Of a stretch of 64,000 nt of DNA, positions 1,999 through 54,414 are shown one piece after another (the stretch's first letter is position 1; every line of letters begins with the position of its first letter). The notes under the pieces were generated by a model. It ran no database searches and had not been told where the DNA came from. It worked only from the letters and a program-made list of their open reading frames with translations. The stretch is from an uncultured Bacilli bacterium. Lineage in GTDB: Bacteria > Bacillota_I > Bacilli_A > RF39 > UBA660. The stretch covers positions 3,458-67,457 of the forward strand of contig CALVYK010000006.1 of assembly GCA_944372195.1 (NCBI GenBank). The letters run 5' to 3'. The translations under genes and the position numbers were made by a program.

Positions 1999-2083
1999 TT
2001 GTATATATCCTTTTTACCCCTTTGTTTTATCTTATGTATAAATTATACCATGCTTATTTATATTTGTCAACAATTAAACGTAA

Positions 2084-2722
2084 TTAATCACACCTATTTT
2101 CATACCAAGTTTCACCCCTTTTAACCGCTTCTGTTACATTATATAGCTTATAATAGCCATTATCAAATGAAACATATTCACATGGTTTATCGGGGTTATA
2201 AGTGCAAATTTGTAATATTTTATTTACTACCTTTTTGTTTCCTTCTTTATCTGTTACAAAAGAGTTTACAATAGGTTTAACCCTGTATGTTAAAAAGCCT
2301 GTTGTATCATAGTCTATATTAAGTTCTGTTAATTCAACTTTTCTACCTTTTATAGCCGTTACTTGGTAAAATTCATTAATTGTCATATCATAACCAAAGC
2401 TATGGTGAAAAATATCGCCTAATTTAGTCTGTATTTTATGTTCTTTTTTTATTCTTTTGTCTTGTTCTTTTTCGTCTATTCTTTTATTTGCTCTTTCGAT
2501 AACTTCTTCGATAATATCTTGTTTATATTTATTAAAATGCTCTAATGTTCTAAAACAATAATTATATCTAGGCTTTTTAGCTTTACCAACCCATGCAATT
2601 AATTTAGGTCTATCGGGGTTTTGTACATCAGTTTTAATAATTAATTGTACTTTGCCTTTGTTGTCTTTGTATACTTCATTATTTTTATCTTCTCTATCTT
2701 TAGCCCAAACATCAAACATCAT
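2084..2722 (-). CDS. Hypothetical protein
   Basis: Track ORF; leader aaagaaagaggtttaaaATG; promoter -35 at 2784-2789. Confidence 0.65.
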   Translation of the reverse strand: MMFDVWAKDREDKNNEVYKDNKGKVQLIIKTDVQNPDRPKLIAWVGKAKKPRYNYCFRTLEHFNKYKQDIIEEVIERANKRIDEKEQDKRIKKEHKIQTKLGDIFHHSFGYDMTINEFYQVTAIKGRKVELTELNIDYDTTGFLTYRVKPIVNSFVTDKEGNKKVVNKILQICTYNPDKPCEYVSFDNGYYKLYNVTEAVKRGETWYENRCD

Positions 2723-5788: not shown

Positions 5789-6133
5789 TTAATCTATTTT
5801 AACTTCAATTTCAAAAATTCTTTTATCATTTTCTTTGATTTCTGCTTCTTCAATTATATTTTGTAATTGTACAATCTCTTTTTCATAAAAAGTTTTAGGA
5901 TGTTCAAAATTAAACTCTAAAGTATATTTTAAATCTGATAATAAGCTCAAAATTTCATCACTTGTAAATTTTGAAATAGTGAAAATATTAAAACTAGAGT
6001 TATATTCTTTTAAGATTGACAAAGAAACTATACAATCCTTAATAATACCATGACATACTACTTGCCATGTATCTCTGCCTTTTTCATCTTTTGATTTACC
6101 AATTCTTTCAGTTATAATTAAATCACCAATCAT
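5789..6133 (-). CDS. Hypothetical protein
   Basis: Track ORF preceded by the promoter-leader cassette. Confidence 0.6.
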   Translation of the reverse strand: MIGDLIITERIGKSKDEKGRDTWQVVCHGIIKDCIVSLSILKEYNSSFNIFTISKFTSDEILSLLSDLKYTLEFNFEHPKTFYEKEIVQLQNIIEEAEIKENDKRIFEIEVKID

Positions 6134-27106: not shown

Positions 27107-27904
27107 CTATTTGTCAATATTTTTATAAAATTCTTCTGCTATATCAATAATTGATAATTGTTTAAGTTTATCTACAGGAATAGAACGCATTAAATTATAA
27201 ACATTAATTTCAAATTCATTTTTAAAAGATGGTCTCTTTTCACTACCACCTTCAATTTGGTGTTTAATACCACGCATATATTTCCAGAAATTATAATAGC
27301 AGGTTTTCATTTTAACTCTAAAGTTGTTAGTGTCTTGAATAACCCATCCTTCATGTCTTATAGAATAATCATTTTTAACAGATTGTCTCCATGAGTATAA
27401 ATCATCCCAATTGTTAAAAGTATAATCTAATACTTTACACTTAACTTTGAGTTCTTTAGCCAATTTCTGAACTTCTTCATATGGCATAAATTCATCTTCA
27501 AATTTATTTTTAACTATATCCAATAAAACTAATTGATTTTCACTATATCTGATAATATGTGGGTCTAAATCTTGATTAATACATTCAAAAATTAAAGTAC
27601 AATTATTGGTTTTACAAAATTCTTTTACCCTATTTTTAAAAGTCTTGTCAAGTTTATCTAATTCTTGTTTTATCATATTGACAAAATCTCCTTTATCAGT
27701 AGATTTTGACGCTATAAATAAATCATCTGTTTTAGGGTTATATGACATTAAGGCTAAAAATCCATTTTCTTTTTTAAAACAATATACAGGAAATAACAAT
27801 TTTTGTTTTAAAACTGCTGATTTCCAATCATAGCCATTTTCTGGAATATCATTTTTAATATCTATATTTAACTTCATTTTACTCTCACTTTCTAATATTA
27901 CCAT
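27107..27904 (-). CDS. RNA ligase, Rnl1-like catalytic portion
   Basis: Motif I FKKENGFLAL (compare T4 Rnl1 TKEDGSL), EGWVIQD, RVKMKTCYY. The N-terminal part of the domain lies in the preceding ORF. Confidence 0.7.
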   Translation of the reverse strand: MVILESESKMKLNIDIKNDIPENGYDWKSAVLKQKLLFPVYCFKKENGFLALMSYNPKTDDLFIASKSTDKGDFVNMIKQELDKLDKTFKNRVKEFCKTNNCTLIFECINQDLDPHIIRYSENQLVLLDIVKNKFEDEFMPYEEVQKLAKELKVKCKVLDYTFNNWDDLYSWRQSVKNDYSIRHEGWVIQDTNNFRVKMKTCYYNFWKYMRGIKHQIEGGSEKRPSFKNEFEINVYNLMRSIPVDKLKQLSIIDIAEEFYKNIDK

Positions 27905-29445
27905 CCAAAAAATTTATTATATCCTCTAGCTATTACTTCACCATTATCTTCATTAACAAATAAACCTCTAGCTTTACAAGTAAGGTTATCCCATTTACCT
28001 CTTTGGAATGCTTTTCTTGTAAAATTGTATGAAGCAATATTATTTTCTAATATTTTCTTTTGGATATTTTTTGATTTTTTTAATTGTGCTAAAATATCAT
28101 TTTGGTTTAAATCAAGGTCTAATTGTTGAGTTTCAGGCACAACTAAATTTTCGTCATAGACATTACTTGGTTGTAATATTTCTTTAACTGAATTATCTTC
28201 ATTAATTTCAATAATTCTAAGAAATTTACCATATTCTGGTTCATCACATAAATTATAAATTCTATCACTTGCTTTAATAGGCAATTTAAAAATATTTCTA
28301 TGTGAATGGATTTGGATATAGTTATCGGGTGTATTGTTGTTCCAAGAGTTATAAATTTCTTCTAAATTTTCATATTTTCCAACACCTTTTATAAACTCTT
28401 GTGTAGGAGTAAAGATGGTTGGAACATTAGGTAAACCGCCATGTGTAATAAGATATACATTTTTACCGAACTTAAAATAAGCCATTTGTGCTAATTTTCT
28501 ACAAAATTGTCTAAGACTTCCTTTATCAATATCTTGTATTTCGGGAATTGTCTTTTCTTTGAATAAAGAGCTTTTAATATTGTTTGAAGATAATTCATTT
28601 AACTGTGTTTTTGTTAAATATTTTTTAAATACCGCTTTATCTTCTAAGTCAATATTAACTTCTTTATATTCATTTGAACAATATTTCTTTAAATGAGCGC
28701 AATGATTGCCTTCTAAGATTAGAAAGTTTGGCTTATTCATATGTTCTAAAAGAAATTCTAATACCTCTTTATTTTGAATACCTCTATCTATATAATCACC
28801 AGTAAAAATATACTTATAACTATCATTAATAGGATTTGCTTTAAAATAGTCTTCAATTGGGGCAAAACAACCATGTACATCCCCAAAAACTACTATTTTT
28901 TTATATTCATTTGTAAAATCGTATAAAACATTTTGTTTTAATACTTCTAAAGCTTCATTACGATTTAAAATTGTAAATTTATTACTTACTTCTTTACAAC
29001 TTGCTATATTTTTTTCTGCTTCAAATACAGCATGCATTTTATGTAATACTTCTTCTGGTACGAATTTGTAAGAATCACGTTCTCTATTTCTTTTTAAACA
29101 TACATCTAAAGAAACATCAGTAAAATCTACAATATAAGCCCTATATCTGTATTTATCAATTAACTTTTTATATCTTGTTAAAAGTTCTTTTTTATAATGA
29201 GTAGCATTAACTATTACAAATTCACCTCGTTCCATACGTTGTTCAAGAATTTCAAATAACATAGTCCATACTTTACCATCATTTTTTTGAGTAATTTCAA
29301 GATTACCATTTAATGATGTAACGGGTGATTGAAGTAATAATCTTATATTGTCAGCAGAGAGTGAATACTGTTCTAAATTATTTTGTTTAATCCAATAATC
29401 TTTACCACTTGCTGGCATTCCACGTGTTAATAATAAAGTTCTCAT
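27898..29445 (-). CDS. Polynucleotide kinase-phosphatase (Pnkp) plus N-terminal part of the ligase domain
   Basis: P-loop TRGMPASGKD; phosphoesterase motifs VVFGDVHGC, GDYIDRG, EGNHC, ITHGG. The C-terminus FTRKAFQRGKWDNLTCKARGLF...GYNKFF resembles the Rnl1 N-terminal region. Confidence 0.8.
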   Translation of the reverse strand: MRTLLLTRGMPASGKDYWIKQNNLEQYSLSADNIRLLLQSPVTSLNGNLEITQKNDGKVWTMLFEILEQRMERGEFVIVNATHYKKELLTRYKKLIDKYRYRAYIVDFTDVSLDVCLKRNRERDSYKFVPEEVLHKMHAVFEAEKNIASCKEVSNKFTILNRNEALEVLKQNVLYDFTNEYKKIVVFGDVHGCFAPIEDYFKANPINDSYKYIFTGDYIDRGIQNKEVLEFLLEHMNKPNFLILEGNHCAHLKKYCSNEYKEVNIDLEDKAVFKKYLTKTQLNELSSNNIKSSLFKEKTIPEIQDIDKGSLRQFCRKLAQMAYFKFGKNVYLITHGGLPNVPTIFTPTQEFIKGVGKYENLEEIYNSWNNNTPDNYIQIHSHRNIFKLPIKASDRIYNLCDEPEYGKFLRIIEINEDNSVKEILQPSNVYDENLVVPETQQLDLDLNQNDILAQLKKSKNIQKKILENNIASYNFTRKAFQRGKWDNLTCKARGLFVNEDNGEVIARGYNKFFGW

Positions 29446-43874: not shown

Positions 43875-44246
43875 TTATGAACTAGGAGATTCTAATGCAT
43901 CAACTCTAGTTTTAAGGGTTGATATTTCACCATCTATAGCAGTATCTTTTTCTGCCAATTCAGTATCTTTAGCTTTTAATGTAGAGATTTCACCTTCTAT
44001 AGTAGTATCTTTTTGTTGTAAACTTGAAATAGAAGTATCTTGTGTAGTATTCTTTTGTTCAATACTGGTTATTTTTCCTTCTATAGTAGTATCTTTAGTT
44101 TTTAATGCTGATATTTCACCATCTATAGCGGTATCTTTTTGTTGAAGAGTTCTTATTTCTTCGCTTAAATCTGTACCGCCACCTTCTAATGTATTAACTT
44201 TTTCTTCTAATCTTTTAAATAAAATTTTACCAACGTGTTTGCCCAT
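43875..44246 (-). CDS. MGKHV-family protein with tandem KDT.I(D/E)GEIS.LK repeats
   Basis: At least 6 repeats of ~12-13 aa, visible also as DNA repeats. Confidence 0.6.
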   Translation of the reverse strand: MGKHVGKILFKRLEEKVNTLEGGGTDLSEEIRTLQQKDTAIDGEISALKTKDTTIEGKITSIEQKNTTQDTSISSLQQKDTTIEGEISTLKAKDTELAEKDTAIDGEISTLKTRVDALESPSS

Positions 44247-44268
44247 TTTAATTCCTCTTTAAAATTGC

Positions 44269-44892
44269 CTATTCATTTTCAATTTCTTGTTTAATTCTAT
44301 TAACTGCTTTTCTATATAAAAACCCTACATTCTGCAAAGAACATTGTTTTTCATTAGCTATTTCTTTACGAGTTTTTTTCATAGAACCAAAAAAACCATG
44401 CTCTTCTATTATAGTATTAAATTGTTTATCTGTTATCTTTTTTTCTTTATTTAATTTTAATAAAGTAGATTTAATTTTGCTTAAAGCGTTTTTATCGTCT
44501 ATTTTTGACTCTACATCTTCGGGTTTAGCCATTATTATCTCATCTATTTCTATATCATAGATATTATTTAAGTGGCTCATTTGCTTTTTATTATATCTTT
44601 TTAATTCATAACAACACGCCCTACTAAAATAAGTAGAAAATTTTATTTTTTTTGTAGTATCAAATTTTTTGATACATTGCATAAAAATTAATCCTGCCTC
44701 TTGTATTAAATCTTCACGCATAAATGGTAATACAATATGCTTAGACTCTAATATGCTAAGCATTTTATATATAAGTCTGCTGACATTCTTATATAACTTT
44801 TCTGCAATTTCTTTTTTAATCTTTTCATTCTTTTCGTTTTGATAAGCAAAAATTAATTCTTCATTACTAATTTTATTTTTCAACTGGGGCAT
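44269..44892 (-). CDS. Sigma-70-family RNA polymerase sigma factor
   Basis: Region 2-like DLIQEAGLIFMQCIKKFD and region 4 HTH RKEIANEKQCSLQNVGFLYRKAVNRIK. Confidence 0.75.
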   Translation of the reverse strand: MPQLKNKISNEELIFAYQNEKNEKIKKEIAEKLYKNVSRLIYKMLSILESKHIVLPFMREDLIQEAGLIFMQCIKKFDTTKKIKFSTYFSRACCYELKRYNKKQMSHLNNIYDIEIDEIIMAKPEDVESKIDDKNALSKIKSTLLKLNKEKKITDKQFNTIIEEHGFFGSMKKTRKEIANEKQCSLQNVGFLYRKAVNRIKQEIENE

Positions 44893-44933
44893 AACTGAAC
44901 CTTTTTTTATTCTACCATAACATTTACCCTGTC

Positions 44934-45476
44934 CTAAATGTTTTTATGAATATTAGCTGTACAATTGTTGTCTATATATTGCTTAATTTCTTCCCAAGAT
45001 ACTGGTTCATATTCCCAGCAATCTACACCTACATCTGTTGATAAACAATAATCATTAAGTTTAGCATGAGTGTGTCCATGTAGTGCATATCCACCTTTAT
45101 AAAAATTATACCATTCTAATAGAGGATAATGCGTTAAATGTATTGTATCACTTCCAATATTAAGAATTTTACTTTCTCTAACATCCAATAATAACCCTTC
45201 TTTTTGACATTTTATAAGATGTTGTTTATTATCATGATTTCCTAATATATATGACTTACGACCATTTAACTGCTTAAAAATATTTTTATAGTTTTCATAG
45301 CTTTGGTTCCAAGCTAAATCACCTAAAAAATATACTACATCTTCTTTTTTAACTAATTTATTATATCTATCAATAATATCCTCATCCATATATTCTATAG
45401 AACTATATGGACGATTAGATAATTTTATTATATTTTTATGACCGAAGTGTTGGTCTGATGTAAACCATATTGTCAT
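44934..45476 (-). CDS. Metallophosphoesterase (YfcE/MJ0936-like)
   Basis: FTSDQHFGH, FLGDLAW, GNHDN, LTHYP, HGHTH. Confidence 0.8.
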   Translation of the reverse strand: MTIWFTSDQHFGHKNIIKLSNRPYSSIEYMDEDIIDRYNKLVKKEDVVYFLGDLAWNQSYENYKNIFKQLNGRKSYILGNHDNKQHLIKCQKEGLLLDVRESKILNIGSDTIHLTHYPLLEWYNFYKGGYALHGHTHAKLNDYCLSTDVGVDCWEYEPVSWEEIKQYIDNNCTANIHKNI

Positions 45477-45502
45477 TTATTTTGTGAACTTTCTGTTTAA
45501 AA

Positions 45503-45574
45503 TTGCGGTGAGTGGACTTGAACCACTGACCTTTGGGGTATGAACCCAACAAGCTACCACTGCTCTACACCGCT
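45503..45574 (-). tRNA. tRNA-Met (CAT) with initiator-like features
   Basis: Anticodon arm TTGGG-TTCATAC-CCCAA (three G:C pairs next to the loop), A1xA72 mismatch, T arm AGTGG-TTCAAGT-CCACT. Confidence 0.75.
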
Positions 45575-45605
45575 ATGTATGTAACTGTATTATTATAATA
45601 AGGTG

Positions 45606-45907
45606 AAAAATATTGTCGACTTGTGAGACTTGCACTCATTTTTCCCTTACCCTAAAGGGTGTTTTACTATATAAACTATCAGTCGTTAGTAGATGCTTAT
45701 AATGTATGGTGCCGAATACTTCGGCATATATGGTTTTACCATCCAACCATAAAGGGATTCCACATTCATTTAGCCTATTTCAACCACAGACTTTGCAATC
45801 ATATTTATCCTAGTGCTCTATAGGTTTAGTATACATATTAACTATAGGTTGCTAAACATATCTAATTAAGCGTTAATTAGAAAACCGTTCTTATTTCAGC
45901 TCACAAG
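45606..45907 (-). ncRNA. Unclassified ~290-nt structured RNA
   Basis: No ORF and locally GC-richer. An 8-bp terminal helix forms between 45900-45907 and 45620-45627, followed by a T-run. Perfect hairpins lie at 45862-45880, 45730-45742, 45710-45726 and 45649-45660. A T-arm-like TGAG-TGCAAGT-CTCA lies near the 3' end. Confidence 0.55.
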
Positions 45908-45975
45908 AAATATTATACTGTAAATTCTGATGTAGTTTGTACTAGATATAATTATTATATATCAAACTTCTAAAA

Positions 45976-46064
45976 TGGGTGGACAGACAGGGCTTGAACC
46001 TGCACTTACTTAGTGTAAATCGGAGTCACAATCCGAAGCGTCTACCAATTTCGCCACTGCCCAC
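45976..46064 (-). tRNA. tRNA-His (GTG) with class II (long variable arm) Leu-like body
   Basis: G-1, acceptor TGGGCAG/CTGTCCA, C73, encoded CCA. D arm GCG-AAATTGGTAGA-CGC, anticodon arm TCGGA-TTGTGAC-TCCGA, variable arm T-TTAC-ACTAA-GTAA-GT, T arm GCAGG-TTCAAGC-CCTGT. Confidence 0.65.
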
Positions 46065-46069
46065 ATAAA

Positions 46070-46158
46070 TGGAGGAAGGCATTGGACTTGCACCAAACCC
46101 ACGTAAATGAGCGTCAGTCTTAGCAGGACGACCCAGTACCTTGACTGGTTTACCTTCC
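46070..46158 (-). tRNA. tRNA-Ser (GCT)-like, non-canonical
   Basis: Acceptor GGAAGGT/GCCTTCC, encoded CCA, loop CTGCTAA, long variable arm. However, the anticodon stem has a bulged T and the T loop reads TGCAAGT (G at position 55). Confidence 0.55.
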
Positions 46159-46163
46159 ATTAA

Positions 46164-46240
46164 TGGCTGGCAGAGTGAGAATCGAACTCACAAAATACCT
46201 TGATTAACAGTCAAGTGCGTTACCATTTCGCCATCTGCCA
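46164..46240 (-). tRNA. tRNA-Asn (GTT)
   Basis: Acceptor TGGCAGA/TCTGCCA, G73, encoded CCA, anticodon arm CTTGA-CTGTTAA-TCAAG, T arm GTGAG-TTCGATT-CTCAC. Confidence 0.75.
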
Positions 46241-46247
46241 ATGAATT

Positions 46248-46335
46248 TAGGTTGAGTTGGAGTTGCACCAACAAAAACTAAAAAAGGTTATGATGTTACG
46301 CACCATCCCGACTAGCTGATATTCGGCTTCAACCT
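46248..46335 (-). tRNA. tRNA-Tyr (GTA)-like element, non-canonical (possible pseudo-tRNA or mimic)
   Basis: Acceptor AGGTTGA/TCAACCT, A73, D arm CCGA/TCGG, anticodon arm ATGGT-GCGTAAC-ATCAT (C33 instead of U33), unstructured T-rich 17-nt variable region, T loop TGCAACT. Confidence 0.4.
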
Positions 46336-46343
46336 ATATAAAC

Positions 46344-46459
46344 GGAATACTTATATGTGCTCTACCATTGAGCTACCTCATGAAATAAATTTCATGGGAT
46401 TGGATTCGAACCAATAATACCAAGCTTAAAAAACTAATATATTTTGCTGTGTGTATTCC
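46344..46459 (-). ncRNA. Circularly permuted tRNA-like RNA (YrlA / Y-RNA-like candidate)
   Basis: 5' GGAATAC (46453-46459) pairs with 3' GTATTCC (46344-46350). Inside, in order: variable region, T arm ATTGG-TTCGAAT-CCAAT (46399-46415), acceptor-like hairpin CCCATGAAA-TTTA-TTTCATGAGG, D arm GCTC-AATGGTA-GAGC. Confidence 0.65.
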
Positions 46460-46546
46460 TCAATTTATACTTTGGATTTTATTTAATTATACAAAATAAT
46501 AGGATTTAACCATATTTTATAAATTATAAACTAATAATTCTTATTA

Positions 46547-46618
46547 TAGCGGTATAGAGAATTGAACTCTAATTCTTAGGTTGAAAACCTAAAGTCCTAA
46601 CCATTAGACGATACCGCC
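46547..46618 (-). tRNA. tRNA-Glu (TTC)
   Basis: Acceptor GGCGGTA/TACCGCT, D arm GTCT-AATGGTTA-GGAC, anticodon arm TTAGG-TTTTCAA-CCTAA, T arm TAGAG-TTCAATT-CTCTA. Confidence 0.8.
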
Positions 46619-46651
46619 AAATTAATTAGCTATATTTAATTTTTTTTAAAA

Positions 46652-46946
46652 TGGTGGAGGTGGAGAGAATTGAACTCTCGTGCAAAAATATTTTTATAAC
46701 ACTTTAATTACAAGTTTATCATGTTTTTTACTTTCCTTCTAATGTTTACATGCAACACCCTAAAAGTCAGCATTCAATTTATACTAAATTGAAAAAAAAT
46801 CACCTAAACAAATAAAAATGAGATTTTATGAACATTTAATTACTTTACTAATTACGCAGCATTTATTTTTTTGTCGTTTTTGAAGTGTACACTCACTTAC
46901 TTGTAGTAATTATAAAAAGATATTTTTGTCAATACCATACACCCCC
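46652..46946 (-). ncRNA. ssrA: tmRNA (SsrA), 295 nt, phage-encoded
   Basis: 5' GGGGGTG pairs with 3' CACCTCC-A-CCA, including a G3:U70 wobble. T arm GAGAG-TTCAATT-CTCTC. 5' GGTATTGAC resembles the conserved GGATTCGAC. Helix 2 is CAAAAATA/TATTTTTG. The tag frame AAC GAC AAA AAA ATA AAT GCT GCG TAA ends at 46852. Confidence 0.85.
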
Positions 46947-47004
46947 ATTTAAAACTGGCTGTATAAAATATTTAGATTTCAATGTTCAATTTTGATATAT
47001 TTTT

Positions 47005-47033
47005 ATTATAGCACTATTATTTTTATTTGTCAA
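47005..47033 (-). promoter_or_regulatory. Promoter TTGACA-N17-TATAAT heading the RNA-gene cluster
   Basis: -35 at 47028-47033, -10 at 47005-47010; about 55 nt upstream of the tmRNA 5' end. Confidence 0.7.
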
Positions 47034-47039
47034 GTGGTT

Positions 47040-48752
47040 TTAAAAATTTTTTATATTATTATCGCAAATGCAATATTCTTTAAGTGTTTCGACCTGTTCA
47101 AAGAATAATTTATCTAAATCCTTAGAATCTAAATCTTCAAAATTATCTACTTTCATATAAATATCAAGAAGAACCTTTTTTACAACTTCATTTACTTCAT
47201 CATTATACAATAAATTAGAAAAGAAATTAGTAAAATCTATTTTTTGTGATTGAAAACTTTTAATATACGGATATATTAACTCTAAGAATATATTTTTGTA
47301 AAAAGAGTCCATATAATTTATAGCTTTAAGTCTTATTAATTCTACCGCTCTATTATTTGAAAAAATAGGACTAAAACATGTTGCTAATAATATTTTTTGT
47401 GCAAAAACAGGTCTACTGTCATAATGTATATCTTTTTTAACTATATCTTCTTGTTTTTCTGTGTGCCATTTTATTTTTTTATAAATATCATTTTCAGAAA
47501 TTATAAGTTTATTAGCAACAAGTTCAATATATTGTTTTCTATCCATAAAATTTGAGATATTAGCTAATATTGGAACCAAAAAATTTAAACAGCTTGTTTT
47601 TTCTTCAATATTCTTTGGATTTATATTCTTTAACTTTAAATCAATTAAAAATTCATTATAAATTTTTGAATGTTTAATTAAATTATTAAAATCTTCTCTT
47701 GTATGATTTGTAAGGTACATATCAGCGTCACATTTTGACCCATCCTTATTTCTCAAATCAATTATATACACTTTAGCATAAGGTATATTGCTTTTGATAG
47801 TAGCAACAAGCTTATCTAAAGATGTTAAGCCTTTTGTATCTGGTCTTAAAGGTGCATCATCTTCTAAACAATAATAGAACTTATCTGTATATTTTTTTAA
47901 CATATTAACTTGACAATCTGATATATTAAGCCCATCTAAACATACAGCATTAACAATTCCCTTTTGATGACATTTAATTACATCAATATTACCTTCAACT
48001 AAAATAACTGAATTAAAATTTTTTATATATTTTTTTGCTTGATATAAACCAAATATAAATTGACTTTTTTCATATATTTCTGTGTTAGAAGTGTGCATAT
48101 ACTTATAGTTGTCACTATCTACGTATAATCTTCCTGTAAAACTAAGTATATTACCATATTCATCAATTCTTGGGAAAATAACTCTATCATTTTTAAATTT
48201 AGCATGATAATTGTTATTTAAATCTGGGACTATTAATCCTAACCTTTTCAAGCTATCTTTAAAAGGAAGTTTATTTATGCCACATCCTATTTTAAAATCT
48301 TCTATTATCTTAGGAGATAATCCTCTTATTTTAGTCAAATAATTATAAGCTTCGTTATTACCCTTTAGTGATAACTGAAATTTTTCACACATAAGTTTGT
48401 TAATATCATATAAAGACTTTTTTACTTTATATTTTTCTTCTTCTTCGGGTGATAATTCAATAGTAACATCATATAACTTTGCTATTGCTTCTACAGCTTC
48501 ACCAAAAGATACATTAAAAAATCTTTTGTAAAAAGAGAATACATCACCACCTGTGTTACAAGACCCCCAACATCTCCATAAACCATATTGTGTATCTATT
48601 GAGAATGAAGGTCTATTTTCATTATGAAAAGGGCATAATGCAAATGCTCTATTACTACCAGTATTTTTTAAGTCTGGCAAATATTTTTTATAAAAATCAA
48701 AAAAATTAATTTTAGATTTAATTTCGTCTAATTTTTCACGTGTGTATAACAT
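47040..48752 (-). CDS. dnaG: DnaG-type DNA primase
   Basis: CHC2 zinc finger CPFHNENRPSFSI...WRCWGSC; TOPRIM VILVEGNIDV ... LEDDAP. Confidence 0.85.
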   Translation of the reverse strand: MLYTREKLDEIKSKINFFDFYKKYLPDLKNTGSNRAFALCPFHNENRPSFSIDTQYGLWRCWGSCNTGGDVFSFYKRFFNVSFGEAVEAIAKLYDVTIELSPEEEEKYKVKKSLYDINKLMCEKFQLSLKGNNEAYNYLTKIRGLSPKIIEDFKIGCGINKLPFKDSLKRLGLIVPDLNNNYHAKFKNDRVIFPRIDEYGNILSFTGRLYVDSDNYKYMHTSNTEIYEKSQFIFGLYQAKKYIKNFNSVILVEGNIDVIKCHQKGIVNAVCLDGLNISDCQVNMLKKYTDKFYYCLEDDAPLRPDTKGLTSLDKLVATIKSNIPYAKVYIIDLRNKDGSKCDADMYLTNHTREDFNNLIKHSKIYNEFLIDLKLKNINPKNIEEKTSCLNFLVPILANISNFMDRKQYIELVANKLIISENDIYKKIKWHTEKQEDIVKKDIHYDSRPVFAQKILLATCFSPIFSNNRAVELIRLKAINYMDSFYKNIFLELIYPYIKSFQSQKIDFTNFFSNLLYNDEVNEVVKKVLLDIYMKVDNFEDLDSKDLDKLFFEQVETLKEYCICDNNIKNF

Positions 48753-48786
48753 TTATTATTCCTACTTTATTGTTTTAACTTTATCA

Positions 48787-49149
48787 CTAAATCACTTTAT
48801 TTATACATTTTTTAATTACATCACAACAAGTTTTGCATTTATGGTTTGCAATCTCTAATAATGATATTTTTATATTCAACAATTTTATATATGAAAGACA
48901 ATTAAGGTCTAGTTGATTTTCTAAAATACTGTTCACTTCTTCTTCACAGGTATACATTATATCTTGTATTAGCGTAATATTTGATAAAATATTTTGTAAA
49001 TAATCTTTGAATATAGGATTATTGTCTTTTGAAAGTAAAATAAATTCATCATAAAATGACAATAACACTTCAAGTATAAAACTTATTTTATCATTTTGCG
49101 TTTTTACAAATTCAGAATATCTTTTTATTAACTCTTTTATGTCTTTCAT
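48787..49149 (-). CDS. Hypothetical protein
   Basis: Track ORF begins at TTG 49158; the first ATG is at 49149. Confidence 0.5.
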   Translation of the reverse strand: MKDIKELIKRYSEFVKTQNDKISFILEVLLSFYDEFILLSKDNNPIFKDYLQNILSNITLIQDIMYTCEEEVNSILENQLDLNCLSYIKLLNIKISLLEIANHKCKTCCDVIKKCINKVI

Positions 49150-49164
49150 AGCAACCAATTTTAT

Positions 49165-49749
49165 TTATTTTATAGCTGATAATTTTGTCAATTTTCTATA
49201 ACAATTTTTACAAACAGACTTGTATTGTACATTAGAATTTTCTATTAAAAGTAGGCTTGAACAATTGTCTATATCTAATTTATCATCTACATATCTAACA
49301 CATCTTGTAGCTATATCGCCACATTCTTCACATTTAGCTGTTAAAACTTCAATATTATCCGCATAAGGTAAAACTCTTTCTATAGTAGTAAATGCTTTAC
49401 CCATGTAGTCTAAAGATAGACCAAAAAGATATATTTTTTTATCGTTTTTGTCACAAAACTCTAAAAAATTTAAAAATTCATCTATATTATGTTGTCCAGC
49501 TAAAAACTGTGTTTCATCAATAAAAATGTATTCAGAATCTTGAATATAATTGTATAAATCTTTTACTTCAAAAATTCTTGTTGCTTTTAAAGATTTGTTA
49601 TCTTTTCTTGAAACGATATAATTGTCTTTTCTTGAACAACAAGCTGGATAAGCTACAATGTATTTAAAACCATTCTTGTCACATTCTTCAACTATTGATA
49701 TTAATTTAGCAGTTTTACTAGCTTTCATAGTGCCTATAAAAATGTTTAG
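49165..49749 (-). CDS. tdk: Thymidine kinase
   Basis: P-loop FIGTMKASKT, FIDETQF, zinc site CEECG...CKNCY. Start moved to MLNIF (RBS ggaga) from track start 49785. Confidence 0.85.
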   Translation of the reverse strand, partial: LNIFIGTMKASKTAKLISIVEECDKNGFKYIVAYPACCSRKDNYIVSRKDNKSLKATRIFEVKDLYNYIQDSEYIFIDETQFLAGQHNIDEFLNFLEFCDKNDKKIYLFGLSLDYMGKAFTTIERVLPYADNIEVLTAKCEECGDIATRCVRYVDDKLDIDNCSSLLLIENSNVQYKSVCKNCYRKLTKLSAIK

Positions 49750-49802
49750 CATTATATCTCCAATTAAAACTATTTCTAATTTCATTATAACACTTTAGAT
49801 TT

Positions 49803-49898
49803 AAAAGTCAATATATTTTTTGTAAATTTTTTTTAAAAGTCAATATATTTTTTGTAAATTTTTTTTAAAAGTCAATATATTTTTTGTAAATTTTTTTT
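49803..49898. repeat. Three perfect 32-bp tandem repeats aaaagtcaatatattttttgtaaatttttttt
   Basis: Units at 49803-49834, 49835-49866 and 49867-49898 read directly. Confidence 0.95.
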
Positions 49899-49908
49899 AA
49901 ATTAGGGG

Positions 49909-49937
49909 TTGACAAATTTTTATTTTTATGATATAAT
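49909..49937 (+). promoter_or_regulatory. Promoter TTGACA-N17-TGaTATAAT
   Basis: -35 at 49909-49914, -10 at 49932-49937. Confidence 0.75.
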
Positions 49938-49943
49938 GAAAGT

Positions 49944-50200
49944 ATTACTAAGGGGTAATACTTTATAGTATTACTATTAGTATAATACATGATATTATAC
50001 ATGATTATAATATGATTATTATACATGATTATAATATGATTTAAATATAATCATGAATATAATCATAAAATACTATTAGTATTAATCATGATTATAATAT
50101 GATTAAATATAATCATGAATATAATCATGAATATAATCATAAAATACTATTAGTATTAATCATGATTATAATATGATTATAAAAAAAATATTTATAAAAA
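49944..50200. repeat. Dense iteron / inverted-repeat array built on ATCATG-CATGAT
   Basis: aaaatactattagtattaatcatgattataatatgatta occurs twice (about 50067 and 50139). atacatgattataatatgatt occurs twice (about 49998 and 50021). ataatcatgaat tandems, the palindrome taatcatgatta, and the hairpin agtatta-ctaagggg-taatact at 49941-49962 are also present. Confidence 0.85.
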
Positions 50201-50203
50201 CAC

Positions 50204-50231
50204 TTGACAAAAAAATATAATGTGTTATAAT
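50204..50231 (+). promoter_or_regulatory. Promoter TTGACA-N16-TGtTATAAT for the plus-strand replication module
   Basis: -35 at 50204-50209, -10 at 50226-50231. Confidence 0.75.
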
Positions 50232-50273
50232 GAGATAAAGAACAAATAACAAAGGTTCAAAAAGGAGTTTTAA

Positions 50274-50975
50274 ATGACTAAAAATTTAGTAAAAATCAAA
50301 AATGCAAAAGTTTCTTATTCAACAATGCTTAACAGAATTGATAAAGCAAAAAAAGGTAGAGCTTTTATCATTTTAGTTCCAGCAGATTCACCTGAATTAG
50401 CTAAAATTAAAGAACTTTATGGTGAGTTAAATACTCAAGCTAAGACTGTTTTTGGTGAAAAATTAGGTAAAAAATTGAAAAATGCTGATACAGACATTTT
50501 TGAAGAAAGCGTATATCATGAAGGATTTGTAGAATTAAAATTTAATGTCTACAACATTAATGAAAAAGAACTTGAAAATGAAGATGGTACAAAAACTACA
50601 AAACTTGTAGAAAATTTAAATCCAATGTATAAAGGTAATTCAAGATTTTGTTATTTTGTAGACAATAACGGTAATAAGATTTATGAAACCAACACTGGTA
50701 AAGGGATTTATCCATTGTCAGGTAATACCGTAGACATTACTTTATCTTTAGTTGCTAAATATAACAGCCAAAAAAATAGACCATCTATCTTATTCAAAGC
50801 CGAAGATGTAAAAATAGTTGAAAGTGATTTTGGTAACAAAAGCTCATCTCCTTCTACTGGATTTTTAACATTAGACGGTGATGATGAGGATATACAGAAC
50901 AATGTAGAAATGGCTAAAACCGTAGATGAAAATGAAGTATTTAGCGAAAATGAATTAACAGCTTTAGATGTTTAG
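50274..50975 (+). CDS. Putative single-stranded DNA-binding protein (phage SSB-like)
   Basis: First gene of the replication module; RBS aaaggag; acidic C-terminal tail DGDDEDI...ENELTALDV. The assignment is weak. Confidence 0.4.
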   Translation: MTKNLVKIKNAKVSYSTMLNRIDKAKKGRAFIILVPADSPELAKIKELYGELNTQAKTVFGEKLGKKLKNADTDIFEESVYHEGFVELKFNVYNINEKELENEDGTKTTKLVENLNPMYKGNSRFCYFVDNNGNKIYETNTGKGIYPLSGNTVDITLSLVAKYNSQKNRPSILFKAEDVKIVESDFGNKSSSPSTGFLTLDGDDEDIQNNVEMAKTVDENEVFSENELTALDV

Positions 50976-50984
50976 GAGGCGTAA

Positions 50985-51575
50985 GTGCAAGTAACAATTG
51001 GTAAAATAGAATTAGGTATTACTAATAATGGTACTGTTAAAGCATACATCTACCCATCTGGAAGTGATTTCACAAATATATGTGAAGCTATTGAGATAAT
51101 AGGAGATTCAGCTATATATTTAGCCACACGTAAAACAGGTGAAACTGTAGAAATTACAGAAAAGGGTCAATGGAAAAATATAAACATTCCAAAGCAATAT
51201 TTAAATGCGTTAAATGACCCTATGTATGAAAGAACTAAATTATTATTTAATAGAAGTGTATCGGCTTTCAATAAATTAGCTAATGGTCCTAGACAGGCTT
51301 TAGACTTTGATAGTGCTAAAGTTTTAATAACTAATAATTTAGAATTATTTTTAAAAACTCAAGATTTTATATTAGCTACACTTAAAAAAACAAATACAAA
51401 CTTTGCTAAAAAAATTGTAGCAGATATTAAATCAGATAATGCTGAAACACAATTTAATGCTTGGAAATTAATTAACGAATTAACACATAAAAGTATTAAT
51501 GAAATTAATAAAGATTTTAAAATTATTAATGATTGTGAAGAAGTAAAAGAAGAAAAAACACCTGATAAAAAATAA
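50985..51575 (+). CDS. Hypothetical replication-module protein
   Basis: GTG start with RBS aggagg. Confidence 0.55.
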   Translation: MQVTIGKIELGITNNGTVKAYIYPSGSDFTNICEAIEIIGDSAIYLATRKTGETVEITEKGQWKNINIPKQYLNALNDPMYERTKLLFNRSVSAFNKLANGPRQALDFDSAKVLITNNLELFLKTQDFILATLKKTNTNFAKKIVADIKSDNAETQFNAWKLINELTHKSINEINKDFKIINDCEEVKEEKTPDKK

Positions 51576-51652
51576 TTCTAAAATTGGGATTATATAACCT
51601 TATTAATAGTTCTGTCCTTTCTTTCTATATTGGTATTAATCCCTTGATACAT

Positions 51653-51689
51653 AGACGTTATACATTTTAGTATAACGTCTTGTATTTTA
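51653..51689 (+). terminator. Intrinsic terminator
   Basis: 11-bp stem agacgttatac 51653-51663 / gtataacgtct 51670-51680, then a T-rich tail. Confidence 0.7.
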
Positions 51690-51691
51690 TA

Positions 51692-51719
51692 TTGACTTTT
51701 TTTATTCACATGATATAAT
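51692..51719 (+). promoter_or_regulatory. Promoter TTGACT-N16-TGaTATAAT
   Basis: -35 at 51692-51697, -10 at 51714-51719. Confidence 0.7.
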
Positions 51720-51740
51720 TAAAGAAAAAAAGGATTATTT

Positions 51741-53219
51741 ATGGCTATTCAAAATATCAATAAAATTATAACAAAAAGTCCACAACAATTAGAAGAAAAA
51801 ATTTTAAAAGCAATATTTAAAAATAATAATTCTTTACTTGAAATAATAGATATTATAAACTATAAAATGTTTACAATCGGTGATTATTCAAGTATTTACA
51901 TAGCAATGTTAGAATTATTAAAGTCTAATACAAATATCAATAATGAAACTGTAAAAATGTGGTTAGAAACTAACGGTATTAATATTGATTTTGAGGTTAT
52001 AAATAGACTTTATAACGAGAGTTTTACTGCTCTTAACATTAAAGATACAGCATTAATACTCAAAGAACTGTATCAAAGAAGATTTATGTTAATAAATATG
52101 AGGGAAATCATTGAAAAACAAGAAACTTCTCCTGCTTGTTCAAGTGATATATTAGAGTCTATTAATGACTTAGCTATGAAATCTGGTGAAATTGTAGCTA
52201 ACAACACCAAAGATACTAAGTGTTGTAAAGATGTAGAGCATTTTATGCAAAACTTTGAAGAAAAGTTTGAAGATAAAAAAACAGATGACTCTATTAAAGT
52301 AAGTTTGAATGTAATAAATTCACAACTTGGTGGTTTAAAAAGAGGGAACGTATGGACTATATGTGCAGACTCTCAAGTAGGTAAATCAATATTAGCTATT
52401 CAACTTTCTGTAGATGCTATAACAATTGACCCAAATATAGTAGTAGATTATTATAGCTTAGAAATGATAAAAGAAGAACAAGAAAATCGTGCTATAGCTT
52501 ATTATGCAAAAGTTGAACCACAATATATTGAAAATCCCAGAAAATATTTTGTTAGATTTGATAAAGTCACTGGTAGATATAGGGATTATTATAAAGAAAA
52601 TAGTGAATCTGATGAGGTTTTAGAATTTAAAGACAGGATTAAAAATGCAGTAAACTTTATTCATAATTCAAATTTATATATAGATGATACCCCTGATTTA
52701 AATATTGACACATTATATGCTAGAGTCAAAAGAAATTATATCAAAAGGGGTAAAATTGATTTAATCGTCATAGACCATATGAATATTTTAGCTAATGGAA
52801 ACCCTAGTGAAATGGTGGGTGAATTAGATAAAGCATATAATAAATTAAAGCAATTAGCTAAAAAATTAAATTGTGTAGTTTTGGCTTTAATGCAGTTTTC
52901 TAATGAACTTAAAAATGATGAACTTCGTAAACCAAATATATTTAACCTAAGAGGTAGTGGTGCGCCTAGGCACTATAGTGATGTAATAGTGGGAATTTGG
53001 AGACCAGAAGTTTATAGAGAAGTTATGGATAAACATCCTGAACTAAAAGGATATTGTGATTTAACTTGGCAAAAGGTTCGTGGATGTAAAAAACCAGATG
53101 TTACTGAATTAGATTATCATGGATATTATTTTACAGAAAAAACTATACAAGACGATAAAAAAGAAAATATTAAAAATATTTATCTTGATGATGAAGGAAA
53201 TGTAATAGGTGAAAAATAA
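51741..53219 (+). CDS. dnaB: DnaB-family replicative DNA helicase
   Basis: Walker A CADSQVGKS, Walker B LIVIDHMN, RecA-like C-terminal domain, N-terminal helical domain. Confidence 0.85.
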   Translation: MAIQNINKIITKSPQQLEEKILKAIFKNNNSLLEIIDIINYKMFTIGDYSSIYIAMLELLKSNTNINNETVKMWLETNGINIDFEVINRLYNESFTALNIKDTALILKELYQRRFMLINMREIIEKQETSPACSSDILESINDLAMKSGEIVANNTKDTKCCKDVEHFMQNFEEKFEDKKTDDSIKVSLNVINSQLGGLKRGNVWTICADSQVGKSILAIQLSVDAITIDPNIVVDYYSLEMIKEEQENRAIAYYAKVEPQYIENPRKYFVRFDKVTGRYRDYYKENSESDEVLEFKDRIKNAVNFIHNSNLYIDDTPDLNIDTLYARVKRNYIKRGKIDLIVIDHMNILANGNPSEMVGELDKAYNKLKQLAKKLNCVVLALMQFSNELKNDELRKPNIFNLRGSGAPRHYSDVIVGIWRPEVYREVMDKHPELKGYCDLTWQKVRGCKKPDVTELDYHGYYFTEKTIQDDKKENIKNIYLDDEGNVIGEK

Positions 53220-53231
53220 GAGGTATCAAAT

Positions 53232-53459
53232 ATGATTGAACCTAAGATAGTATATCTTATTAAAGATTTAGATAGTGATAAATATTTAGAAGTTAGAGGC
53301 TTAAAATTTGAACCCTTATTTTCTAGTAACCAATTTTTCTATAATTTAGAAGAAGCTAAAATAGAATATAAAATCTTAAAATTTGACAAAATGAAAAATG
53401 TTGAGATTATTGCTTTTAAAATAGAAGAGTTAGGAACTATTAAAATTAGAAATGAATAA
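53232..53459 (+). CDS. Hypothetical protein
   Basis: Track ORF; RBS aagagg. Confidence 0.55.
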   Translation: MIEPKIVYLIKDLDSDKYLEVRGLKFEPLFSSNQFFYNLEEAKIEYKILKFDKMKNVEIIAFKIEELGTIKIRNE

Positions 53460-54093
53460 AAAAATATTAGCTTGTGACTTTAGTTTAACTGGATGTGCTT
53501 TTATATATGATGATAATAACTATAAAGTAAAATATAAATATTTCTCATCTTTGAAAAGTGATTTTAAAAATGAAAATTGTTGTGAATTGTACAAAGAAGA
53601 TACATCTGTTAATAAATTAGATAAAATAATTAAAGTTTTTGAAAAGCTATTAATAGATAAAGAATTATTTATCTTAGAATCGCCAGCATATAGTTCAGTA
53701 AATAGTAATAATGAGTTTAAATATGGGTATGGTATAATGATGTTTTTAGCTAGAAAACATAATGTTCCTTATTTATTAATTCCACCAATTAGCAATAAAT
53801 TATATTTTACTGGAAATGGTAAAGCCACAAAAGATGATATGATTAAAAAAGCTGATGATTATAATAATATTATAAATATTAAAGAAATATCTAAAAAACA
53901 TCAGGAAGATATATCAGATTGTTTAAGTTTATATCTATTAGGCAAAGACTATATAAAAAATTATGATTATTTAGTTTTATCTGGGGAAAATAAACATTTT
54001 AATAATTTAGAATTAAATAAGCAACAAGTTATCGCAAAGCTATATAATCGTGAAGATTTAGTTAAAAAAATAATTAAATTAAGAAAAAAATAG
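53452..54093 (+). CDS. RuvC-like Holliday junction resolvase (putative)
   Basis: N-terminal ILACDFSLTG (catalytic Asp), ILESPAYS (Glu), C-terminal DISDCLSL. Confidence 0.5.
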   Translation: MNKKILACDFSLTGCAFIYDDNNYKVKYKYFSSLKSDFKNENCCELYKEDTSVNKLDKIIKVFEKLLIDKELFILESPAYSSVNSNNEFKYGYGIMMFLARKHNVPYLLIPPISNKLYFTGNGKATKDDMIKKADDYNNIINIKEISKKHQEDISDCLSLYLLGKDYIKNYDYLVLSGENKHFNNLELNKQQVIAKLYNREDLVKKIIKLRKK

Positions 54094-54137
54094 AGTTAAA
54101 AAATATAATTTTCCTAAAAAAACTTTTTAAAAAACAC

Positions 54138-54165
54138 TTGACAAAAAAACATTATATGTTATACT
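54138..54165 (+). promoter_or_regulatory. Promoter TTGACA-N16-TGtTATACT
   Basis: -35 at 54138-54143, -10 at 54160-54165. No ORF follows before the next promoter. Confidence 0.7.
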
Positions 54166-54203
54166 AATAATATATCTGTTGCATTAATAAAAATTTAAAA
54201 AAA

Positions 54204-54273
54204 AGAATACATACAGCAAACTAAAATTATATACTGAAAATATTTGCTCCTATTTTGTTTAAAAAAGTATTCT
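54204..54273 (+). ncRNA. Y-RNA-like stem module b (stand-alone transcript candidate)
   Basis: AGAATAC (54204-54210) pairs with GTATTCT (54267-54273); 5'-side motif ATACAGCAAAC; inner helix CAGCAAA/TTTGCT; followed by gttaaattttta. Confidence 0.5.
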
Positions 54274-54295
54274 GTTAAATTTTTATAAAAAATAC

Positions 54296-54324
54296 TTGAC
54301 AAAATGATTAATATATGATATAAT
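54296..54324 (+). promoter_or_regulatory. Promoter TTGACA-N17-TGaTATAAT
   Basis: -35 at 54296-54301, -10 at 54319-54324. Confidence 0.75.
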
Positions 54325-54353
54325 GTAAGTATATTAAATATAATTAAAAAAAA

Positions 54354-54411
54354 AGATTACAGACAGCAAACTAAATTACAAAATATTGGCGCTTTCAAAG
54401 TAATTTGTAAT
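54354..54411 (+). ncRNA. Y-RNA-like stem module c (in the 5' leader of CDS 54504-55898)
   Basis: AGATTACA ... TGTAAT closing helix with a compensatory A:T to T:A change relative to modules b and d; motif GACAGCAAAC; inner hairpin AAATTAC/GTAATTT. Confidence 0.5.
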
Positions 54412-54414
54412 AAA

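Follow-up and report, generated by a model that had tools for sequence, protein, structure and literature searches.

A one-piece tmRNA gene of 295 nt is carried by a phage that was recovered with the metagenome bin of an AT-rich bacterium, and its features suggest that it probably encodes a functional tmRNA whose message has been cut to two alanine codons. Phage tmRNAs and bacterial Ala-Ala tags are both already known, and here they are most likely combined on a phage of about 119 kb. Among the papers that could be searched, none describes a two-codon tag for a phage tmRNA. The gene lies on the minus strand of the analyzed stretch of 64,000 nucleotides (here referred to as the window), and RNA position p corresponds to window position 46947-p. 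Its parts and its surroundings are compiled in Table 1.

Table 1. Positions of the tmRNA gene, its structural parts and the neighbouring transcription features in the window.
Feature	RNA positions	Window positions	Strand	Details and basis
One-piece tmRNA gene		46652-46946	(-)	295 nt, from 5' GGGGG to encoded 3' CCA; RF00023 match
Acceptor stem, 5' strand GGGGGUG	1-7	46940-46946	(-)	Pairs with 46656-46662; read from sequence
Helix 2, 5' strand, with CAAAAAUAU and ACAAGU	19-48	46899-46928	(-)	Complementary to 46683-46715
Hairpin AAGUG-AGUGUA-CACUU at the pseudoknot-1 position	49-64	46883-46898	(-)	Local fold and stem enumeration
Single-stranded A-rich box ACAAAAAAAUAAAU, with U-5 and A-4	73-86	46861-46874	(-)	
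Putative tag frame GCU GCG UAA (two Ala codons and stop)	87-95	46852-46860	(-)	
Helix 5 hairpin UAAUUA-GUAAAG-UAAUUA, beginning at the stop codon	93-110	46837-46854	(-)	Stem enumeration
Reduced 3' body	111-231	46716-46836	(-)	Fold tentative; Infernal and stem enumeration
Helix 2, 3' strand, with ACUUGU and AUAUUUUUG	232-264	46683-46715	(-)	MFE fold and Infernal
T arm GAGAG / loop UUCAAUU / CUCUC	268-284	46663-46679	(-)	Infernal alignment and MFE fold
Acceptor 3' strand CACCUCC (285-291), discriminator A292 and encoded CCA (293-295)	285-295	46652-46662	(-)	
Promoter TTGACA-17-TATAAT with TG extension		47005-47033	(-)	Consensus sigma-70-type, 12/12 positions
tRNA array (Glu, Asn, His, Met and tRNA-like RNAs)		45502-46619	(-)	ARAGORN and Rfam

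Infernal aligned the gene end to end with the Rfam model RF00023 (model positions 1-374 of 374, corresponding exactly to 46652-46946), with a score of 61.8 bits, a gathering score of 47 and an E-value of about 1e-22, which is far beyond chance expectation. A preliminary description, made before any database search, had proposed a tmRNA here, and all the hallmarks that it listed were found at this place on the minus strand. These include the acceptor stem with a G3:U289 wobble, corresponding to the G3:U70-type alanine identity pair, the discriminator A73 and the encoded CCA, all read in the sequence, as well as the T arm, the GGUAUUGAC box (RNA positions 11-19), helix 2 and an open internal frame. 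The posterior probability of the Infernal alignment is near 1 in the acceptor 3' region. The check with tmRNA models that the description had suggested gave a score above the gathering score from Infernal and no tmRNA call at 46652-46946 from ARAGORN at default settings; with the relaxed -ps option, ARAGORN called a "tmRNAp" of identical coordinates whose tag makes no sense. The compactness noted earlier was also borne out, as none of the about 140 tmRNAs from 150 genomes of the host class is shorter or scores lower.

In the body of the RNA, helix 2 is long and almost perfect, with both strands paired in the MFE fold and in the Infernal consensus structure, and within it CAAAAAUA (19-26) pairs with UAUUUUUG (257-264). 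There is a T arm but no anticodon arm, and the long helix 2 joins the tRNA-like and mRNA-like parts as in a one-piece tmRNA. As for the four standard pseudoknots (PK1-PK4), the single-sequence fold shows PK1 as a hairpin only, one candidate in the 3' body and a PK4 region of 5 nt. Neither local folding nor stem enumeration gave a convincing second helix for PK1, where the Infernal posterior is low, and the PK4 region is mostly absent, with its 5 nt facing 47 in the RF00023 model, again at low posteriors. For the 3' body, stem enumeration tentatively places hairpins at 120-151 and 154-174, and there is a candidate H-type pseudoknot (181-211 with 195-199/223-227), which is likewise tentative as a single-sequence prediction.

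To judge from its sequence context, the resume codon of the RNA is most likely GCU, and the encoded tag would then be only Ala-Ala, giving (A)AA. For comparison we used 54 ssrA genes from the host genus and class, each with the tag assigned by ARAGORN. All 54 of them have A(-7)A(-6)U(-5)A(-4)A(-3)NN before the resume codon, which is always GGN. In E. coli, the frame depends mainly on the A at -4 (A86), and U85 is conserved too (PMC2481249). The phage RNA contains the corresponding frame-setting box AAUAAAU at positions 80-86, directly followed by GCU GCG UAA, and the MFE fold leaves its A-rich upstream box unpaired. We took GCU as the resume codon because this conserved upstream box, an A-run with U-5/A-4, sets the frame in class tmRNAs. 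A weight matrix (PWM) trained on 19 distinct upstream 10-mers places the best site of the phage RNA at G87 (GCU), with 6.6 bits in comparison with a training range of 4.8-12.9. The matrix is weakly discriminating in an AT-rich RNA, as 37% of shuffled sequences match the score of 6.6 somewhere; yet the match at G87 is at the correct structural place, and Infernal aligned AAAAAAUAAAU followed by GC with the consensus AAAAAAUAAuU followed by GC at a posterior near 1, so that GCU is favoured. The preliminary description had read a lysine-rich tag, (A)NDKKINAA or (A)DKKINAA. This proposal is probably wrong, since the codons AAA AAA AUA AAU coincide with the frame-setting box of host-class tmRNAs and of the Rfam consensus. 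The conserved box directly precedes GCU, and therefore the "lysine-rich" codons, and with them the NDKKIN part of the proposed tag, appear to be the box misread as message.

The window belongs to a 73.9-kb contig of a 1.28-Mb metagenome bin (25% GC, 87% complete), and the GC content of the contig, 25.6%, equals that of the bin. Phage families of the PHROG collection are represented on the contig by primase, exonuclease, Pnkp/RNA ligase, sigma factor, tail-fibre and tail-collar proteins; a Ro60-like RNA-binding protein and a RuvC-like resolvase are also encoded. More than 20 assemblies contain this primase and this sigma factor on stand-alone contigs, the longest of which reach 119-120 kb; ERZ28614017 is an example of a source of the 119-kb contig. 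An independent 119-kb contig from another sample (L044) matches at 100% identity over a length of 9.4 kb in which the tmRNA lies at its positions 5807-6101, and this rules out an assembly chimera. A fragment left at an att site was ruled out as well, the tmRNA being full length with its own promoter. The earlier claim that the gene is phage-borne thus agrees with both the PHROG families and the stand-alone contigs, and it is very unlikely that the contig is bacterial. Terminal direct repeats are absent, so the contig is not a closed genome; at its start, upstream of the window (G000:C6:1-100), there is a short tandem repeat with a period of about 13 nt.

The host of the phage was assigned by binning only, and a search for a CRISPR-spacer-like link found only low-complexity 22-24-mers common to the bin and the phage contig. 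The bin has its own ssrA on contig C5 (G000:C5:69821-70163, 115.8 bits), which encodes the tag GNRNQLAFA and adjoins the single smpB of the assembly, in the region G000:C5:68734-69159; no smpB was found on the phage contig. The preliminary description had called for a comparison with the host tag, and the two are dissimilar, with GNRNQLAFA in the host and most likely Ala-Ala in the phage. The phage tmRNA shows about 61% identity to the ssrA of the bin and a global identity of only about 60% to any sampled tmRNA of the class. Among 30 genomes of the host genus, exactly one tmRNA was found wherever there was a match, and the extra copy exists only in this bin. ClpP and Lon are encoded in the bin, and a canonical clpX was not detected in this 87%-complete assembly. 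The ClpP match (G000:C2:76952-77488, minus strand) holds one in-frame TAG.

The distance from the promoter to the 5' end of the tmRNA is about 58 nt, and on the same strand a tRNA-Glu starts 33 nt beyond the CCA of the tmRNA. With this promoter upstream and the tRNA array directly downstream, the tmRNA would be the first gene of an RNA operon, and the array is probably co-transcribed with it. The phage carries further RNA-related genes, and its toolkit comprises a Pnkp/RNA-ligase protein (27898-29445, minus strand), the Ro60-like protein (54504-55898, plus strand), the tRNA array and the tmRNA. This RNA-maintenance gene set is reminiscent of cluster C mycobacteriophages.

The proposed function can be outlined as follows. 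The tmRNA would be transcribed from its own consensus promoter along with the tRNA array and trimmed by RNase P and 3' processing enzymes, and the host AlaRS would charge it with alanine through G3:U70 and A73. The host SmpB, of which the phage contig has no counterpart, would bind the RNA. The charged RNA would then enter stalled ribosomes and take over the nascent chain, the U-5/A-4 box would put GCU in the A site, and GCU GCG would be read before termination at UAA. Rescued chains would in this way end in Ala-Ala-Ala-COOH, and ribosomes would be freed during infection after two elongation steps, still leaving a terminal Ala-Ala of the kind that ClpXP-type proteases may read as a degron. We infer charging, SmpB binding, tagging and proteolysis from the observed sequence features and the family match. 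With the E. coli variant SsrA-STOP, which has stops directly after the resume codon and adds a minimal tag, lambda-immP22 plated at an EOP of 0.9 (Table 4, PMC2862035), a result that makes a two-alanine rescue by the phage tmRNA plausible. Moreover, recognition by ClpXP depends mainly on a terminal Ala-Ala-COO- (PMC7652416).

Two-amino-acid Ala-Ala tags have been described for 25 tmRNAs, mainly of Fermentibacterota (Nawrocki, Petrov & Williams 2025, PMC11915505). The same tmRNA database contains 79 unique phage tmRNAs, with no link drawn to Ala-Ala tags (PMC11915505). In view of this number and of many permuted tmRNAs in IMG/VR contigs, the preliminary description went too far in calling tmRNAs uncommon in phages; what stands of it is the compact, phage-borne tmRNA, and what finds no support, besides this statement, is the lysine-rich tag. 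We scanned the GTDB species genomes with the pattern TLD ... AAUAA-NN GCN GCN UAA and recovered about 30 Fermentibacterota species with Ala-Ala tmRNAs. Beyond this phylum, such genes were found in Coprothermobacterota, Lithacetigena, Psychracetigena and one Saccharibacteria genome. Where the ends of these genes could be set, they are of full length, at 348-358 nt. Other pattern matches (L151, L153, L155, L162, L175, L181, L182, L188 and L191) are not tmRNAs and were discarded as chance matches. ARAGORN, applied to seven of the bacterial Ala-Ala tmRNAs (L173, L161, L152, L166, L154, L172 and L158), returned nothing or a wrong tag; for L173, from a Coprothermobacterota MAG, the tag was "GGKKINAA", in which the upstream box is translated. 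The Saccharibacteria MAG contig (L158) also carries a type III hammerhead ribozyme (2057-2111, minus strand, 48.7 bits), at a distance of 1.3 kb from its tmRNA.

A relaxed Ala-Ala pattern gave zero or chance matches in IMG/VR. With the pattern used on the GTDB genomes, restricted to the acceptor stem of the phage, we obtained a second phage from JGI metagenomes, with two variants of a 322-nt tmRNA (L196 1344-1665, minus strand, and L197 5172-5493, plus strand; 77-78 bits). The message of these RNAs is AAAAAAAUAAUU followed by GCA GCA UAA, with the box AAUAAUU, and ARAGORN made no call on either. The gene is located just downstream of the major head gene. The major head protein, the head protease and the endolysin are interrupted unless TAG is translated as an amino acid, so this phage is TAG-recoded. 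No protein similarity was found between it and the compared parts of the present phage family, and the two phages are apparently unrelated. It is conceivable, and we put it forward tentatively, that at least two unrelated phage lineages, one of about 119 kb with the standard code and one TAG-recoded, independently acquired or evolved tmRNAs with Ala-Ala tags for very fast ribosome recycling. The bare Ala-Ala tail might serve ClpXP as a universal degron, or it might evade the adaptor- and protease-specific recognition of tags in the host.

The phage has a family of relatives whose primases are 42-62% and sigma factors 54-64% identical, and we compared their loci in two regions, one at the primase and one at the sigma/NrdD module. 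The replication block DnaB-DnaE is inverted relative to the relatives (window 44000-62200 in comparison with L106-L108 and L111-L114). As a consequence of this inversion, the SLT and PD-(D/E)XK genes come after DnaE, and the primase is followed by the tRNA/tmRNA array. The order is thus primase-tmRNA-tRNAs-Metallophos here, whereas at the related junction it is DnaE-(1-2 tRNAs)-Metallophos. Rfam models gave tRNAs only at this equivalent junction, with no tmRNA, which makes the present tmRNA a lineage-specific addition. In one of the relatives (L111 6322-6368, plus strand), a DUF3800-XI RNA motif match of 40.3 bits comes directly after a tRNA of the array that lies upstream of Metallophos.

Further searches for relatives of the tmRNA gave no DNA match among GenBank phages (blastn), none through the neighbouring primase in IMG/VR, none by DNA search among 40 relatives of the host and none in the GTDB genomes with a two-ended pattern. 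The phage primase had no counterpart in 400 genomes of the host class other than the host DnaG at about 30% identity.

The reading in which the RNA is a functional phage tmRNA that resumes earlier, at AAC (69) or GAC (72), and adds (A)NDKKINAA or (A)DKKINAA is unlikely. The frame AAC GAC AAA AAA AUA AAU GCU GCG UAA is open throughout and in frame with the same stop, the two codons would stand at a plausible 5-8 nt from the hairpin 49-64 if pseudoknot 1 is only this hairpin, and ARAGORN makes analogous calls on similar bacterial genes. However, neither site has the U-5/A-4 box of the 54 class ssrA genes, their PWM scores of -10.9 (AAC) and -3.1 (GAC) compare with 6.6 for GCU, and no AAC or GAC resume codon occurs in the class sample. 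The KKIN codons are moreover the conserved upstream box, aligned by Infernal with high posterior, and the curated database gives equivalent bacterial genes two-amino-acid tags (PMC11915505). We also regard as improbable that the RNA takes no part in rescue, either as a decaying relic or as a decoy that titrates host SmpB or AlaRS and dampens host trans-translation. A decaying gene would look much like this one, with the lowest score and shortest length among host-class tmRNAs, a degenerate pseudoknot 1 and a missing pseudoknot-4 region, and the absence of a tmRNA from the related phages indicates that it is dispensable for the family. Tag-less phage tmRNA derivatives do exist; mycobacteriophage DS6A has a TLD-only RNA for which a decoy role was suggested, and in E. 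coli a comparable TLD-only molecule was a strong inhibitor of tmRNA (PMC4131195, PMC11915505). But the tRNA-like domain would suffice for a decoy, whereas the present RNA keeps helix 2, the single-stranded box, the Ala-Ala-stop frame and helix 5 in canonical order. The perfect promoter upstream speaks against both the relic and the decoy, as does the fact that the same minimal frame is kept in bacterial lineages where it belongs to the sole tmRNA and in two diverged variants of the other phage.

It is hardly to be expected that the gene is not phage-encoded at all, that is, a second bacterial ssrA, part of a misbinned bacterial contig or a fragment at an integration site. The contig does come from a metagenome bin and has the same GC content as the bin, and second ssrA copies are known in some genomes, such as G142. 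Against this stand the phage families on the contig (tail fibre, primase, exonuclease, RNA ligase and sigma factor), the same sequence on stand-alone contigs of 119-120 kb from more than 20 assemblies, the existence of a family of related phage contigs and the lack of a second tmRNA in the 30 host-genus genomes other than this bin; an att fragment is at odds with a full-length gene that has its own promoter. We thus favour a functional phage tmRNA with a two-alanine message.

This tmRNA shares with standard SsrA (RF00023) the tRNA-like domain with G3:U70, A73 and CCA, the T arm, the long helix 2, the A-rich U-5/A-4 box before the resume codon and the stop at helix 5. The host-class ssrA genes are 337-413 nt long, and the ssrA of the bin has about nine codons and the resume codon GGA, whereas the phage RNA has 295 nt and most likely two codons, with GCU as the resume codon; it also differs from standard SsrA in its pseudoknot 1, which seems to be only a hairpin, in the largely missing pseudoknot-4 region and in its phage location. 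The bacterial Ala-Ala tmRNAs have the same message design, AAUAA-NN and then GCN GCN UAA, and ARAGORN fails on them likewise. They are 348-358 nt long, GC-richer, chromosomal and the only tmRNA of the cell, while the phage RNA is compact, AT-rich and accessory, beside a normal host tmRNA.

Full-length phage tmRNAs are known from the mycobacteriophage Bxz1 group and Bacillus phage G, and from huge phages (PMC7162821). The present case resembles them in that a whole tmRNA gene lies on a large, tRNA-rich phage, which in addition encodes a Ro60-like protein together with a Y-like RNA. The TLD-only RNA of DS6A is comparable in that it, too, is derived from a tmRNA, belongs to a phage and is reduced in its message part. 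It has little beyond the tRNA-like domain and no frame, whereas the present RNA keeps helix 2, the box, the frame with its stop and helix 5; with a frame and an mRNA-like domain, it falls outside the CDS-less (DS6A-type) class. The tmRNA of L196/L197 is similarly phage-borne, AT-rich and compact, with the acceptor stem GGGGGUG/CACCUCC and two Ala codons. It differs in its T arm and body, in a true pseudoknot 1, in its place next to the major head gene and in the TAG recoding of its phage, and the global identity of 63% to the present tmRNA is at background level.

The phage RNA keeps the parts needed for rescue and most likely drops all but the last two residues of the tag, which argues that ribosome release is its main benefit to the phage. 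If release dominates, an elaborate degradation signal would matter less, or the bare Ala-Ala tail would be degron enough. The finding connects the Ala-Ala tmRNAs of Fermentibacterota, RqcH-type alanine tails and the engineered minimal-tag SsrA mutants. ARAGORN is the standard tmRNA caller in phage annotation and is used by most phage pipelines. It fails on the Ala-Ala design, and naive translation makes a spurious "KKIN" tag from the frame-setting box. Such genes escape ARAGORN-based annotation, and the class of phage Ala-Ala tmRNAs may therefore be much larger than is now apparent.

Other tmRNA genes were met during these searches. The IMG/VR matches to the 3'-end pattern of the tmRNA were tRNAs and permuted tmRNAs unrelated to this gene. 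Permuted two-piece tmRNAs (RF04321, RF01850 and RF01849) occur on many IMG/VR viral contigs (L008, L013, L021, L028, L031, L036 and others); they have in common the T arm and acceptor 3' end GAGTTCAATTCTC-CCACCTCCACCA, and several adjoin tRNA genes. In another genome of the class, G142, there is a second full-length tmRNA of 318 nt (L150 2001-2318, or G142:C9:14252-14569; 135 bits), whose ARAGORN tag GKQNSSGSIQPSSMWLTWSSV is atypical and not Ala-terminated, and which may be another mobile-element copy.
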